The translations under genes and the position numbers were made by a program. 64,000 nt of DNA from Myxococcota bacterium. Its GTDB lineage: Bacteria > Myxococcota_A > SURF-8. Location: NCBI GenBank assembly GCA_965140415.1, contig OZ223209.1:224001-288000 (forward strand), read 5' to 3'. This document shows, in pieces, positions 737-60,430 of this stretch. Positions within the stretch are counted from its first letter, which is position 1. The number at the start of each line of letters is the position of its first letter. The notes under the pieces are model-generated. The model saw only the letters and a program-made list of their open reading frames with translations. It did not search any database and was not told where the DNA came from.

Positions 737-1333
737 GTCAGTCGATGGGTTTAAATCCCTCGCCTTTAGGCGAAACCTTGAGGTTTTTCAATTGAGCGTG
801 ATAATGTCTTTGTCATGGAGAAATATCGCACCAGTTCGCATTCGCGTTTCGACCTGAAGTATCACTTTGTTTGGATAACGAAGTATCGGAAACCCATTCT
901 TTCCGGCGCGGTAGGCAAGCGACTAAGGGATTTGGTAATTGAAGTTTGCAAGGCGAATGAGATCGAAATACTGCAAGGGCATGTAGCCAAAGATCACGTT
1001 CATCTGTTCGTGTCGTGTCCTCCGAATTTGTCTCCAAGCAAGATCATGCAGAAGATCAAAGGAAAATCGTCACGGAAACTGATGATGGAGTTCAAGCACG
1101 TGCAAAAAGCTTTCTGGGGTCGTCATTTGTGGGCGCGAGGCTACTTTGTTGCGAGCAGCGGTAATGTGACGGATGAGACGATTCAGGAATATATCCGATT
1201 GCAGGAAGAAGGGGAACCGCCGGACGGTGGAGCCAATTTCAGAGTTGAGGGCGAAGATGCGTGACGACTTGAGTCGTCACGCCGTTGAACGACCACCCAT
1301 AAATCCTTCGCCTTTAGGCGAAGGTAGTTTAAT
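737..1333 (+). mobile_element. IS200-like element 1 (597 bp)
   Basis: TCGCCTTTAGGCGA hairpin near both ends, TTAAT at both junctions, tnpA inside. Confidence 0.9.
815..1264 (+). CDS. tnpA: IS200/IS605 Y1 (HUH) transposase
   Basis: YHFVWITKYR, HUH motif DHVHL, LWARGYF, catalytic YIxxQ. Confidence 0.95.
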   Translation: MEKYRTSSHSRFDLKYHFVWITKYRKPILSGAVGKRLRDLVIEVCKANEIEILQGHVAKDHVHLFVSCPPNLSPSKIMQKIKGKSSRKLMMEFKHVQKAFWGRHLWARGYFVASSGNVTDETIQEYIRLQEEGEPPDGGANFRVEGEDA

Positions 1334-1626
1334 TGTTGTGGCAAACACTCGATTAAAGTCGATCAGGAAGAGGATTTGAGCTTCACCCTGTTTGAGAAAG
1401 ACAAGCCCGGCTTTGGAGGTCGTTGCGACTGCATGTGTCCCTTCGACTTTTCGATCGAAATGCCCGCTCTCTTGGAGCCGGGCGTCATTTCGGTGAAACT
1501 GTTGCAGGATGTGACCGATTCCGAACATAGCGCACGGATTCTCTGGGAAGGTCAGATCGATACCCGCGAAGGTTCCGGTACGATAGTTATCGGCGAGACG
1601 GAGTGCTACTAGAGTAGGTATTACTC

Positions 1627-1790
1627 ATTTCTGACCATCGAGTAATCACGATGTGTCATGGTCTCGCGGAATGGAAATTCCGGGAGGCCGTGTGTAACTT
1701 ATTGAAGACACACAGCCTTCCACGATCTTCGATCGCGTAAGACTATGGCACACATTCTTCAAATTAGTGGCTAAAAATGATTAAGAACCG
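1627..1790 (+). repeat. ~160-nt structured dispersed repeat, copy 1
   Basis: Aligns with 17816-17976, 36135-36291 (reverse) and 60241-60378. Confidence 0.9.
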
Positions 1791-1851
1791 CTACTAGTTC
1801 CGGCCTGGATCGAATCGAAGTAAAGCGCTCTATTTAAAGTCATGTATTCTC

Positions 1852-1880
1852 AAGCCGGGCTGAGCAACCCGGCTTTTATT
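1852..1880. terminator. intrinsic terminator between convergent genes
   Basis: AAGCCGGG-loop-CCCGGCTT followed by TTATT. Confidence 0.6.
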
Positions 1881-13148: not shown

Positions 13149-13537
13149 CTCCCATTTCCGTGCTGATTATCGAAGACGAACCCTACATTCGCGACAGTCT
13201 GGCCGAGTTTCTGGTGGATGAAGGATTTATGGTGGAGATCGCGGAAAGCGGCGAAGAGGCTCTGGACTGCTACCGCAAACGCCGTTTTCACCTTTGCATC
13301 GTGGACATTCGACTGTCTGGTATGGACGGCACCCGCGCCATTCAGAAAATCAAGGATCTAGATCCGCAAACCCGAATTCTGGTTTTTACCGGCTCCTTGG
13401 AATTTCAGATCAATGCCGATCTGGCACGACTGGGATTGACGGAGGAAAACGTCGTCTATAAACCGGTCAGCGATCTGGATGTAATCCTGCGCAAGATAGA
13501 AGGTCTTGGTTTCCGCCTGCCCAATCCCGTGTCGTAA
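13145..13537 (+). CDS. single-domain response regulator (receiver)
   Basis: IIEDE, phosphoacceptor VDIRLSGMDG, T and KP motifs; ATGA overlap with the kinase gene. Confidence 0.92.
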   Translation: MTPISVLIIEDEPYIRDSLAEFLVDEGFMVEIAESGEEALDCYRKRRFHLCIVDIRLSGMDGTRAIQKIKDLDPQTRILVFTGSLEFQINADLARLGLTEENVVYKPVSDLDVILRKIEGLGFRLPNPVS

Positions 13538-13562
13538 TTTCCTTTATTAGCGTTGCTTTATT

Positions 13563-13699
13563 GTAGCGGCGAGGCGTAAGCCCGCCGAAAAGCACTAGTT
13601 GATTTCAGGGTGGCGCGGGCTAAACCGTAGGTTTGCCCGTGTTCGAGGGTCAGCTTCGTTTCTCTCCGCTTGGCCCATGGGCTTACGCACCGCTGCTAC
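13563..13699. repeat. REPIN-like element: two inverted family A REPs flanking an ~80-bp module B
   Basis: GTAGCGGCGAGGCGTAAGCCCGCCG ... GGGCTTACGCACCGCTGCTAC; interior matches the reverse complement of 54893-54984. Confidence 0.8.
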
Positions 13700-13764
13700 A
13701 GCAACTGTTATTGCTAAAAATGACAGAGAATCCGTTAATCGACCAACCGAAAGCCATCATGTGC

Positions 13765-17746: not shown

Positions 17747-17815
17747 AGGTGCAAGTCAGCCTGTTTGTTTGCAACTGCCGCTTGATTGAATCGCCTGTTT
17801 TGGAGACGACACCTG

Positions 17816-17976
17816 TCTGCCCATCAAGTAATCGGGATGTGGCCTGTTCTAACGGAATGGAGATTCCGGGAAGCCGTGTGTAACTATAAGAAAATACACA
17901 GCCTTCCACGATCTCGGATCGCGTAAGACTATGGCACAAACTCACAGAATCTGTGACTAAAAATGATTAAGAACCG
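17816..17976 (+). repeat. ~160-nt structured dispersed repeat, copy 2
   Basis: Aligns with 1627-1790. Confidence 0.9.
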
Positions 17977-18019
17977 GTATATCGATCATGAAAGCAAGGT
18001 TTAAATATAAGATCAAAGA

Positions 18020-18637
18020 ATCATGACCGCCCCTGCAAGGGGCGGTTTGACTTTGGCCCTATAAGGGCCCGGTACCGGCACAACCTAAAGGCCGCCTGTT
18101 CCGACTTCTGCATTGCTTACTAGCTACCCTTAAAAGGGTCTGTATGCCCTATCAAGCTTAACTGGTCCGTCATCTTGTCACGAGTATCCTGCTCCCTGAT
18201 ATACTTGACAATGCTTTTCTCGTTGATACCAACCGTGCTCACGTAATACCCTTTGCACCAGAAGTGACGGTTCCCGTACTTGTATTTCAGGTTCGAAAAC
18301 TGTTCGAATATCATCAACGAACTTTTCCCCTTCAAATACCCCATGATCTCGGAAACACTGTACTTCGGCGGAATATTCAAGCACATATGAATGTGGTCCA
18401 CACACGCATTCGCTTCTACAATTTCAATTCGCTTGTACTCGCAAAGCTTGCGAAGAATCGCTCCAATCTCACGCTTGTATTTGCCGAAAATGATCTTCCG
18501 ACGAAACTTCGGCTCCCACACAATATGGTATTTGCAATTCCACTTCGTGTGCTCTAAACTACTTTCCATTACCACTCTCCTTGCTGTATATGATGGAAGT
18601 CGGAACAACTCCTTTATACACGGAGAGTGGTTTTGTC
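18020..18637 (-). mobile_element. IS200-like element 2 (boundaries approximate)
   Basis: Right-end hairpin ACCGCCCC-TGCAA-GGGGCGGT; 5' stem ACCACTCTCC/GGAGAGTGGT covering the RBS; tnpA inside. Confidence 0.8.
18120..18569 (-). CDS. tnpA: IS200/IS605 Y1 transposase
   Basis: HTKWNCKYHIVW, DHIH, FWCKGYYVSTVG, YIREQ. Confidence 0.95.
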   Translation of the reverse strand: MESSLEHTKWNCKYHIVWEPKFRRKIIFGKYKREIGAILRKLCEYKRIEIVEANACVDHIHMCLNIPPKYSVSEIMGYLKGKSSLMIFEQFSNLKYKYGNRHFWCKGYYVSTVGINEKSIVKYIREQDTRDKMTDQLSLIGHTDPFKGS

Positions 18638-35144: not shown

Positions 35145-36125
35145 ATGACCGGACCCCGATTTTCGGATAAAGCCGCCAATGTGGCCGGCATTTTAAAGCA
35201 ATTTCTGCTGGATCGACCGCGCCTGCCCATCGGTTTGAAAGATCAGCTTTTCTTCAGCCCCTTTCTGGTGCAGATGGTTGTGACACGCCGCTGCAACCTG
35301 CATTGCGGCTACTGCAACGAATTCGATAACACAAGCGAACCGGTGCCCACCGAAACGCTGAAAGCCCAGATCGATAAAATCCACGAAATGGGCGCATTGG
35401 CCGTTGAATTCACCGGCGGCGAACCGTTATTGCATCCGGACATCGTCGAGGTGGTGCGCTATGCTACACAAAAGGGTTTCGCGGCGCGCATGATGATCTC
35501 GAACGCCTACCTGTTTACGGAAAAGAAACTGTTGGAACTGAACGAAGCCGGTTTGACGGATTTGCAGGTCAGTATCGACGGCGTTAAAACGAACGACATC
35601 ACCATCAAGGTGCTCGATCCATTGCGCGACAAACTGGAGATGATCGCCCGGCTGGGACGCTTTCGCGTACAGCTAAACGGTGCGGTGGGTGTGGCTCCGC
35701 CGGAAGAAACGCTGGAGATGATCGATTTCGCCAAGGCGCACGGCTTCCGTCCGCGCGTGCTGTTGGTGCATGACGGCGACGGCCAGGTGCGGCTGAGTCG
35801 CGAGCAACTGGCCACCTACGAAGAAGCCAAGGGGCGCATCGGAAAGCGCTTCAAGGAATCGCACGGCTACCGGGAAAAACTATTAGACGGCGGACCGGCC
35901 TTTTTCAAATGCCGCGCCGGGGCGCGGTATCTGTACGTCGATGAATTCGGCATGGTGCGCTGGTGCAGCCAGCAACGCGCCGCCTTCGAGAAACCGCTAT
36001 TGGACTATACGCTAGAGGATTTGAACGAGCAGTTCTACCGCGCCAAAGGCTGCGAGGATTACTGCTCGGTAGGTTGCGCCCGCACCAGCAGCGCCTACGA
36101 CGAGCATCGGGAATATGGGAAGTAG
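35145..36125 (+). CDS. radical SAM protein with C-terminal Cys cluster (SPASM/twitch-like)
   Basis: CNLHCGYC, TGGEPLL, CRAG...WC...CEDYCSVGC. Confidence 0.9.
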   Translation: MTGPRFSDKAANVAGILKQFLLDRPRLPIGLKDQLFFSPFLVQMVVTRRCNLHCGYCNEFDNTSEPVPTETLKAQIDKIHEMGALAVEFTGGEPLLHPDIVEVVRYATQKGFAARMMISNAYLFTEKKLLELNEAGLTDLQVSIDGVKTNDITIKVLDPLRDKLEMIARLGRFRVQLNGAVGVAPPEETLEMIDFAKAHGFRPRVLLVHDGDGQVRLSREQLATYEEAKGRIGKRFKESHGYREKLLDGGPAFFKCRAGARYLYVDEFGMVRWCSQQRAAFEKPLLDYTLEDLNEQFYRAKGCEDYCSVGCARTSSAYDEHREYGK

Positions 36126-36134
36126 AGTCTGAAC

Positions 36135-36291
36135 CTTCTATTTTTAGCCGCAGATCCTGTGAGTTTGTGCCATAACCTTACGCGACCGAAGATCGTGGAA
36201 GGCTATGTGTTTTCTTATAGTTACACAAGGCCTCCCGGAACTTCCATTCCGTGAGACCATGGCACATCCCGATTACTCGATAGGCAGAAAT
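36135..36291 (-). repeat. ~160-nt structured dispersed repeat, copy 3
   Basis: Reverse complement aligns with 1627-1790. Confidence 0.9.
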
Positions 36292-36305
36292 GGATGATGT
36301 CTGCT

Positions 36306-37535
36306 CTAAATATAAAACCGGAAAAGCAAACTGGCGCTGTAGGGATAGCTGCCGAATTCGGAGCGCAGGCGTGGCAGAATGCGCCAGGGTCGTTGTACGC
36401 CCGGTTTTCTGCCAAGCGGAATACCCAGCGTGGCGATCATGTCGATGTTGTCATCCAGGCTGTAGGTGGCGGCTCCGGTAACGTAAAACGAGGGATCGGT
36501 TACGTTCATCAGCGCCACGGCCTGCAACACCAATAACGGCGTGGCTTCGCCACTGATGGACAGACCCAAAAAATGACGTCCCAGGTAGGGGTCGGCAAAG
36601 TCAGTCATCGTCGCCGCCTGCGTCAGGTAGTCGTCCGGACCTTCCGCTCCCTGGCCGCGATAGTAATATTCCAACGCCAGCTGCACCGTGTTTTCCCAGC
36701 GCTTGTCGAAGCCGACGGCAAAGCGTCCGTACCACTGATCGATATCGTCTTTGGGAAACGTGATATTGCCCTCGCCGCGCACGCCCAAGCCAAGCACTTC
36801 ACCGGTAAACGCGCCGCCGAAGACGTAGCGGCGATCAAGCTGGCCACCTAAAACGGAGAAATCGAAGCTGTCGATGTTCATCTGCCCGCGCAGAATCGCC
36901 GCACAGCGTTCCCAGGCCGGTTGGTCGTTTTCATCGTAGCCCATCGCTACGATGGCGGTAATCTGGGAGAGGTAGCTGGGCATGGCATCGATGCGAATGG
37001 CGTCCACGCCGGGGCGGAATTCGCGATCGGCGGCGGTGCTGGCGAAGGGATGGAAGAAATCGTTGGGGGTGAAAATATAGTTCGTGGCCAGCCCGATCGG
37101 CTGGCGTCCGATGGTGACATCCACCGGGCCGCCGTAGATTTTCAGTGACAGGCTGTCGACAAAAAACGGAAAATTGAAATCGTCGTCGCTGAACCAGTCG
37201 CTATCCAGATAGGTGGTGCGGTAGCTGCTGTCGTTGGCGGAGAAAAGGCTTTGACCGTTTGTATAGCGTGCCCCCTGATACAGGTTCACGTCCAGATTCA
37301 GCCGATCGACGAACAGGGCATTGACCAGCAGGCGCAGGCCGATAAAGGCATCCCCGGTGACCTCATCCGGGTAAAGCTGCTTGGGTCCGGGGTTGATCTG
37401 CACGCCACCGCCGCCATCGATGGCCAGCCGCGCATTCAAGGAAACCGTGTCCGTTTCCACATCCGCAAAGCCATAGGCCAAGGCCGCGTTCAGCCACAAG
37501 ATGACCGCTATCCAACCGGTACATACACGTTTCAT
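36306..37535 (-). CDS. probable outer-membrane beta-barrel protein
   Basis: Signal peptide; IGRQPI, RPGVDAIR, aromatic C-terminal strand. Confidence 0.75.
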   Translation of the reverse strand: MKRVCTGWIAVILWLNAALAYGFADVETDTVSLNARLAIDGGGGVQINPGPKQLYPDEVTGDAFIGLRLLVNALFVDRLNLDVNLYQGARYTNGQSLFSANDSSYRTTYLDSDWFSDDDFNFPFFVDSLSLKIYGGPVDVTIGRQPIGLATNYIFTPNDFFHPFASTAADREFRPGVDAIRIDAMPSYLSQITAIVAMGYDENDQPAWERCAAILRGQMNIDSFDFSVLGGQLDRRYVFGGAFTGEVLGLGVRGEGNITFPKDDIDQWYGRFAVGFDKRWENTVQLALEYYYRGQGAEGPDDYLTQAATMTDFADPYLGRHFLGLSISGEATPLLVLQAVALMNVTDPSFYVTGAATYSLDDNIDMIATLGIPLGRKPGVQRPWRILPRLRSEFGSYPYSASLLFRFYI

Positions 37536-59706: not shown

Positions 59707-60240
59707 AGAAAGTAAGTGCCGTTCCGATTGGCAATCTCTCTATCTTTTTGTAATATGCTCACGATTTATTTTCGGGCCGTTTCTTACTGTGGGCTTTTAC
59801 AGAGAAATTGGTAAGCGGGCAAGTTGAGATGTTTTCTGCTCTTTGCACCAGAATAATCGAGAAAAACACTCACGCACTGCTTAAAAATAGATAAGACTTT
59901 ACGGTGTGTGTGTCACATAGCTTGAAATCCCGGAGGGACGCACGCCTCTGGATCAGTCGCCCTGGGCCCTCGACCCGTTTCCAATCCAATCCGATTCCCG
60001 AATTCCCAGGGAGGCGACCCTTCCATTATTTTTTTCTGTGCGAATCTTCATTTTTCTCCCCCCTTGTAGGAGCCTCTTCCGCGCCACACCGGAAGAGGTT
60101 TCCCTTTTTATGCCCCCATTTTCTCTGTAAGACGAGTCGGTAAGAAAAATATTCACAATAATGTGAGTGATTCACAAAAAAAGTGGCTTGCTCTTTGGGA
60201 TGGCGGTCGTTAAACGGGTTATTAGAGGAGATATCATTCG

Positions 60241-60378
60241 TTTCTGCCCATCGAGTACTCGGGATGTGGCATGGTCAGACCGTGTGTAACCTATTGAAGA
60301 CACACAGCCTTCCACGATCTTCGATCGCGTAAGGCTATGGCACAAACTCATAAAATCAACGGCTAAAATTGATTAAGA
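60241..60378 (+). repeat. structured dispersed repeat, copy 4 (one hairpin deleted)
   Basis: Aligns with 1627-1790 except that the CGGAATGGAAATTCCG arm is missing. Confidence 0.88.
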
Positions 60379-60430
60379 GTTACTATAGACCGCGCCACCC
60401 CGAAATCAGTTAGCTTTGTAAAAATCGAGC

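Follow-up and report, generated by a model that had tools for sequence, protein, structure and literature searches.

With a probability of roughly 0.7, the multi-hairpin repeat found in four copies in the window (the whole stretch of 64,000 nucleotides analyzed here) is a composite non-autonomous selfish element, in which a REPIN-like doublet lies between the arms of an IS630-type MITE. Because the ends of the repeat match an IS630-type insertion sequence (IS) and its center is an inverted pair of REP-like units, it can most likely be classed as selfish DNA rather than as a new RNA gene. An earlier note on this DNA had described a closing stem enclosing three arms and had suggested a mobile, strand-specific structured RNA or single-stranded DNA element, naming a 3′-UTR element, a non-autonomous element of the HUH kind or IS110 passenger, and a new class of non-coding RNA as options. 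Among these, the mobile, non-autonomous element of the HUH kind agrees with the results: the core is of the Y1 RAYT/REP type and, in a related genome (G004), a RAYT gene lies in the P3 loop between exact half-cores. A new RNA class is not called for, the anatomy being explained without RNA. The features of the four copies, with helices numbered P1 to P4, are as follows.

1610..1796, + strand: copy 1, whole element including the bordering TA (1610-1611 and 1795-1796), from the alignment of 42 copies and string positions.
1612..1651, + strand: copy 1 left arm, IS630-type terminal inverted repeat, paired with the right arm in the fold; over the first 23 nt it matches one IS630-family end of G004 at 82.6%.
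1652..1752, + strand: copy 1 core, read as a REP doublet with a predicted four-way junction, from string positions, folds, pair counts and the half-cores that flank the G004 RAYT.
1652-1664 with 1740-1752, P1; 1667-1682, P2; 1683-1720, P3; 1721-1737, P4: helices of copy 1.
1753..1794, + strand: copy 1 right arm, IS630-type terminal inverted repeat, identical over 27/27 nt to the other IS630-family end of G004.
About 17801..17981, + strand, core 17838-17938: copy 2, left arm and 5′ strand of P1 degraded; model score 78.8 bits.
36123..36308, - strand, core 36166-36266: copy 3; model score 94.1 bits.
60223..60387, + strand, core 60265-60344: copy 4, P2 arm deleted; below the 1e-14 cut-off of the model search.

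The four window copies are related as had been claimed, with a mean column identity of 79% in their alignment (A1). The arm that copy 4 was said to lack appears in A1 as a 21-column gap over P2, and the degraded closing stem of copy 2 is evident both from its sequence and from A1. The extent of the element and its copy number, in turn, needed correction. Borders were set by aligning 42 full-length genome copies with their flanks, together with string positions for copy 1; similarity begins about 15-20 nt beyond the coordinates of the earlier note on both sides, giving the wider spans listed above. A genome-wide blastn search with copy 1, the copy-number check that the note had proposed, returned 82 HSPs, which merge into 80 places, not four, in the single-contig genome of 5,975,757 bp (52.4% G+C); decay or truncation affects many of these copies. 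At full length the element measures about 185 bp, and it is non-coding, the ORFs that overlap repeat copies being shadow frames, and as a multi-copy sequence of less than about 300 bp it falls within the definition of a MITE. The stop codon of one ORF (1376-1612) is made up of the TA border and the first base of the element.

Terminal inverted repeats and a target duplication had not been seen earlier; at the revised borders, inverted repeats are present, as is a candidate duplication. The outer ~30 nt of the two element ends form imperfect inverted repeats that pair with each other in the fold, and outside the TA..TA borders the similarity among the 42 full-length copies drops away at once. 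TA is present at the 5′ border in 29/42 of these copies, at the 3′ border in 33/42 and at both in 26/42, and is absent from one or both borders in 16/42, compared with a genome-wide TA frequency of 3.3%. The IS630 family duplicates TA on insertion. No empty-site joints were found among the contigs of three DNA-type sequencing runs, contigs breaking at the repeat, and it is for this reason that we infer, and do not report as observed, that the TA is a target duplication.

The origin of the arms was sought in 40 relatives. G004, which belongs to the same family and another genus, has isolated places where 27 nt agree perfectly with the 3′ end of the element, and two of these places are elements of ~1.09 kb bounded by inverted copies of the 27-nt end sequence. 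Element positions 160-186 are 100% identical (27/27 nt) to one end of this IS630-family element and positions 1-23 match its other end at 82.6% (19/23 nt), so that a match to a known IS end, which the earlier note had named as refuting its own reading, is found at both termini. The ~1.09-kb element encodes an ORF of 122 aa with HTH_23, HTH_28 and HTH_29 and an ORF of 202 aa with DDE_3 (PF13358, E = 5e-28), which together are the make-up of an IS630-family transposase. This parent contains no core and was found only in the other genus. In the source genome, a protein search, a Pfam DDE_3 search and tblastn all came back blank for an IS630-type transposase, the control of the DDE_3 family search being positive in 5/14 known genomes; the ~80 copies therefore look like orphan MITEs, and their DDE transposase would since have been lost from this genome. 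A further G004 locus (L087, G004:C5:8164-8286) has a core 86-90% identical to the source-genome version and keeps part of the IS630-type right arm. Because of this partial arm, the composite would either predate the split of the two genera or have passed between them.

The halves of the core are inverted copies of each other, each comprising a head block, a hairpin and a second block. P1 and P3 would accordingly represent pairing between the inverted units and P2 and P4 the private hairpin of each unit, with the four-way junction as the probable form of the doublet when single-stranded. The closing stem and three arms described earlier stand, the fold lying far beyond shuffled sequences both for the whole of copy 1 as RNA (-67.8 kcal/mol, z = -6.2 on the + strand; z = -4.6 on the - strand) and for the core as DNA (-25.6 and -25.3 kcal/mol on the two strands, z = -5.3 and -6.5). 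The left half-core alone folds as a REP-type DNA hairpin (-13.3 kcal/mol, z = -4.5), and the right half-core folds as a DNA hairpin only on the opposite strand. A covariance model (R1), built from 24 cores and the four-helix structure, gives the opposite strand almost the same score in some genomes (70.7 vs 61.9 bits), and the G·U pairs of one strand are offset by A·C positions, which are G·U on the other strand. The small hairpin reported 5′ of the closing stem (CGA-GTAA-TCG) is not kept: most copies read ..TCACGA.. at this place and others TCGGGA or TCATGA.

Conservation was assessed in 63 distinct cores from 7 genomes, left from 79 model matches once 14 duplicates on the opposite strand and 2 identical sequences had been removed. 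Hardly any sequence variation is seen in P1 and at the base of P3, and P2 and P4 vary by paired substitutions that keep the pairing. Column pair 33/51 is AT in 35 cores, CG in 22, TG in 2 and TA in 2, and pair 34/50 is TA in 35 and CG in 21; likewise, pair 167/181 is CG in 54, AT in 4 and GC in 4, pair 168/180 is GC in 52, CG in 4, AT in 3 and TA in 2, and pair 169/179 is AT in 32 and CG in 30. The P4 pair 166/182 is A·C in 39/63 cores and a standard pair in 24. Alignment A2 has 90.3% of its cells paired, 29-44% with partners slid by 1-3 columns, and 31 cells changed on both sides vs 11.1 ± 2.6 in shuffles. Because the alignment of the 63 cores was fitted to the model, the column-pair counts taken from it lean towards structure. 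The more distant cores of G001, G002 and G003 display extra P2 and P4 variants, with the P3 loop going from 14 to 45-48 nt.

An RNA would equally be expected to show the paired changes of P2 and P4. These changes bear, together with the RNA fold (z = -6.2), on the alternative that the repeat is a structured RNA of 3′ UTRs or a small RNA, for which mobility is only the means of spreading; it might, for example, shield upstream mRNAs against 3′ exonucleases or serve as a terminator or insulator. We consider this alternative unlikely: both strands fold equally well, and P1 and P3 are sequence-fixed on both strands, as for paired inverted DNA units. The Rfam comparison proposed in the earlier note likewise yielded no family, with 0 matches to Rfam 15 at gathering scores in the whole window and chance-level matches only (E above 4) in a permissive scan around copy 1, and no run of T follows P1 in any of the four window copies.

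The core has a narrow distribution and occurs in several contexts. R1 finds it in 7/10 genomes of the order (the source genome and 6 others) and, with stricter filters, in 0/141 other genomes sampled from the phylum, and an exact-pattern scan of 185,579 species genomes gave matches only in three MAGs labelled 'Myxococcota bacterium' (G004, G006 and G009). Copy number differs about tenfold between genomes. The central ~100 nt are present in other genomes at 72-86% identity and the arms are not. In the case of G004, G006 and G009, many cores lie within a MITE of ~265 bp that has a different terminal inverted repeat (TIR) and is derived from the IS5 family; in G009 the core also occurs in a third TIR context, in G001 it is located between REP-like hairpins, and in G004 one locus (L091) is a bare core. 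The parent of the second MITE type is present in G009 as an element of ~870 bp (L144, G009:C74, about 117-990), whose two overlapping ORFs, with DUF4096 and DDE_Tnp_1, assign it to the IS4/IS5 family. G009 also has a core-less MITE of 82 bp that consists of two inverted copies of the IS5-type end (L141, G009:C3, about 229-308); no obvious full-length pairs turned up when inverted IS5-type TIRs were sought by pattern, and the parent element was reached from a single match. Since the flanks differ between genomes and a core-less 82-bp MITE exists, core and arms are separable modules.

Passages in PMC3337134, PMC2817692 and PMC5581495 describe REPINs as REP doublets that form hairpins and are associated with REP-associated tyrosine transposases (RAYTs; see also PMC3116915), and RAYT genes as about 500 bp long and flanked by inverted REPs. 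A corresponding locus is found in G004, where two facing copies of the P1 15-mer, separated by 613 bp, enclose a Y1-transposase-like gene. The order at this locus (L110) is P1 5′ strand, P2-type hairpin, P3 5′ strand, an ORF of 161 aa, P3 3′ strand, P4-type hairpin and P1 3′ strand, and complementarity between the flanking arms (22 and 15 nt) is 100%. The ORF is a RAYT (NF047646, 90.2 bits with a cut-off of 80; Pfam Y1_Tnp, E = 2.4e-7) with the motifs HVH and Y..NP. Because the transposase gene occupies the P3 loop, the multi-copy core corresponds to the L110 structure minus the gene, and the position of a RAYT in this loop between exact half-cores identifies the core as a REP doublet (REPIN-like). 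The 15-mer that flanks the RAYT occurs 12 times in G004, vs 0 for the reversed control.

Orthologues of the L110 RAYT, with 50-57% identity, are present in G006, G003, G002, G007 and the source genome. Those of G003 and G002 (52-53% identity) keep the four-helix flank layout with other P3 and hairpin sequences, and in both genomes P3 is not the same in the RAYT flanks as in the multi-copy cores. The RAYT flanks in G006, G007 and the source genome consist of a GGGTGG head followed by a self-pairing hairpin; the head of the core is GTGC in most cases and GTGG in a minority. A cognate RAYT between exact half-cores was found only in G004, such flanks not being found at the 10 other RAYT loci searched. 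No strong core match lies within about 1.5 kb of 18 of the 20 RAYT or Y1 loci searched; strong matches occur only at L102 and L104, and two other loci have weak ones (E of 0.009 or more). G009 (90% complete, 70 contigs) and G001 hold cores, and an intact RAYT of the L110 clade was not found in either. The source-genome RAYT of this clade has an in-frame TAG (C1:4582411-4582875; L124 1471-2046), and its flanks are degenerate REPs with a GGGTGG head instead of half-cores. The source genome has one more RAYT, intact and from another clade, with its own GTAGG-type REP in about 5 copies.

A RAYT of another clade, situated between two cores in G001, was considered as the cognate gene and rejected, because it has its own GTAGG-type REPs, the cores are part of the surrounding 377-bp direct repeat and the link is non-systematic. 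At this locus (L102, G001:C2, 1078-2481), the RAYT, with perfect 29-nt inverted GTAGG-type REPs, lies exactly between two 377-bp direct repeats, each of which holds a core flanked by REP-like hairpins; the direct repeats look like a duplication from insertion or recombination.

That exact half-cores occur at only one RAYT locus leaves room for another account, in which the repeat is an ordinary IS630-type MITE, its center leftover or random palindromic filler, and the likeness to a RAYT locus either coincidental or the result of a RAYT inserting into one existing copy. The match of the arms to IS630-family ends and their presence in all 42/42 full-length copies of the source genome agree with this account. 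It is nevertheless very improbable, given that cores without IS630-type arms occur in 6 other genomes, including within IS5-type MITEs and bare, that three RAYT orthologues have the four-helix flank layout in common, and that the G004 IS630-family element itself is without the core.

The genomic placement of the repeat was evaluated with home-made, crude gene calls based on codon usage (4,096 genes, 88% of the genome). Among the 78/80 scorable copies (two at the contig end were skipped), 48 lie between convergent genes, 29 between tandem genes and 1 between divergent genes, and 77/78 are downstream of at least one gene. Convergent spacers thus hold 62% of the copies, vs 16.6% of all spacers (p = 6e-19) and 19.3% of spacer bases (p = 3e-16). 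For the four window copies, the codon-usage calls bear out the earlier statement that the element always lies between convergent genes; genome-wide the statement fails, only 48/78 copies being so placed. Earlier, length-based gene calls gave 40 convergent, 34 tandem and 2 divergent placements of 76 and mis-called the neighbors of copies 1 and 2. In tandem spacers no orientation bias was found (18 co-oriented vs 11 anti-oriented, p = 0.26), and orientation relative to the replichores derived from GC skew is also unbiased (Fisher p = 1.0). The orientation counts and the near-identical DNA folds (-25.6 vs -25.3 kcal/mol) do not bear out a strand-specific element, and the fixed orientation to a host gene that goes with a 3′-UTR element is likewise not seen.

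Downstream of copy 1, a terminator-like G+C hairpin followed by TTTTATT is present on the + strand (window 1853-1880), and for this reason copy 1 is probably within the 3′ untranslated part of the upstream transcript. Its position between a stop codon and this hairpin fits the RNA alternative, as do the share of copies between convergent genes (62%) and the location of 77/78 copies downstream of at least one gene. Purifying selection on insertions, however, also yields a bias towards 3′ ends, the tandem spacers show no orientation preference, and the anatomy is fully accounted for by the RAYT locus. In the composite reading that we prefer, the concentration at gene 3′ ends would most simply reflect the survival of the least harmful insertions.

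With respect to the chromosome as a whole, 46/80 copies lie within 1 Mb, and 31 within 0.5 Mb, of the cumulative GC-skew minimum (~417 kb); as the skew maximum is at ~3.13 Mb, the two replichores would be unequal. This clustering, together with inverted blocks of 15 bp and 11 bp that two families have conserved on both strands, would suit a DNA site recruited by the host, double-stranded or extruded, and kept for chromosome organization in the manner of REP/BIME sites for gyrase or IHF. Such a site is distinctly improbable as the main explanation: no binding protein is known, copy number varies about tenfold between genomes, many copies are decayed or truncated, and origin-proximal clustering could also arise from local hopping or replication gene dosage. 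An RNA role or a role as a host DNA site could still be a secondary use of the element.

Other mobile sequences are found close to the window copies. A 603-bp element of the IS200/IS605 family occupies 732-1334, with tnpA at 815-1264 (+) encoding a Y1 transposase of 149 aa; it has five 100% identical copies in the genome, and the one in the window is ~275 bp from copy 1 (tnpA 347 bp away). Contigs of the single metatranscriptome (run X4, with 7% of the words) map on this tnpA (815-1264) and at other places, away from the repeat element. Copy 2 has a single-copy IS200-type Y1 gene (18120-18608, - strand; 162 aa, with ~33% identity to the first) at a distance of 147 bp. IS200 genes were rejected as general partners of the repeat, the four other identical copies of the first gene being 10-33 kb from any repeat copy. 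Moreover, two additional REP-like modules are located at 13562-13587 and 13608-13641: in one, a GTAG-type head precedes a GC-rich hairpin whose loop is GTAA, and in the other a GGGTGG head precedes a hairpin, as in the flanks of the broken RAYT of the source genome. A blastn search with window positions 13530-13720 returned 72 HSPs genome-wide, many of which adjoin MITE copies, resulting in BIME-like mosaics.

According to the composite reading, the ~80 copies would have been spread by an IS630-type DDE transposase acting in trans, with duplication of TA, a RAYT being the alternative mover. The fold would matter as single-stranded DNA recognized by the RAYT and not as RNA. Given the lack of an IS630-type transposase and the in-frame stop in the RAYT of the matching clade, the copies are probably now stranded. 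A broader proposal, which we regard as possible and rather doubtful, is that REP doublets of one RAYT clade repeatedly became central MITE cargo: in an IS630-type MITE here, in IS5-type MITEs in three relatives and in at least one further type. As a capture route, the HUH enzyme may preferentially land on the apex of a MITE hairpin, where the DNA is single-stranded; alternatively, a strong central fold may help the MITE ends to meet. If the cargo reading is true, the repeat would be a 'two-key' element, movable by an HUH or a DDE transposase, and a REPIN lineage could in this way grow to about 80 copies and persist after its own RAYT was lost.

Comparison with known systems places the repeat nearest to three kinds of elements. 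Like REPIN-RAYT systems, it has two inverted REP-type units and a spacer that form a hairpin in single-stranded nucleic acid, a cognate HUH/Y1 gene of ~500 bp flanked by inverted units (in G004), and extragenic, multi-copy, lineage-restricted units whose hairpins are kept by compensating changes. Unlike them, its unit is ~45 nt long and comprises a head, a 9-bp stem and a nested hairpin, and because each unit is this long the doublet forms a four-way junction and not a single hairpin. Its head is mostly GTGC, with GTGG in some copies, as opposed to the REP head GT(A/G)G; its host is labelled Myxococcota and not Proteobacteria; and the source-genome copies are all inside the arms of a DDE-type MITE, with no matching intact RAYT in that genome.

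The Correia elements of Neisseria are described as IS630-derived in a passage of PMC2817692. Together with RUP of Streptococcus pneumoniae, these IS630-derived MITEs resemble the present element in being small and non-coding with IS630-like TIRs and TA borders, and in having dozens of intergenic copies that, by analogy, would be moved by a transposase in trans. They differ from it in that the center here is a REP doublet of an unrelated HUH system, not IS-internal sequence, and that the parent IS was found only in another genus. ERIC/IRU and BIME-type mosaics of enterobacteria are similar in being imperfect palindromes of 100-200 bp in intergenic, often (in enterobacteria) transcribed DNA, and the present element is, as in such mosaics, often beside other REP-type repeats in mosaic clusters. 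To our knowledge ERIC has no known parent transposase, whereas both parents of the element here can be named; the present element, moreover, has no sequence similarity to any repeat RNA listed in Rfam.

Against the known background of REPINs, RAYTs and IS630 MITEs, novelty lies in the long unit with its four-way fold, the host lineage, and the occurrence of one doublet in MITEs of two unrelated DDE families; a limited literature search, which is no proof of absence, found no description of a doublet inside MITEs of two unrelated transposon families. What stood as a candidate 'new ncRNA class' gives way to a concrete anatomy, and a lineage labelled Myxococcota gains a REPIN-RAYT system whose units are unusually long and fold four-way. 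In practical terms, repeats of this kind break short-read assemblies and create false ORF ends. If the hitch-hiking of the doublet in MITEs is true, REPINs would not be strictly tied to a single-copy RAYT, which bears on ideas about REPIN-RAYT co-evolution.
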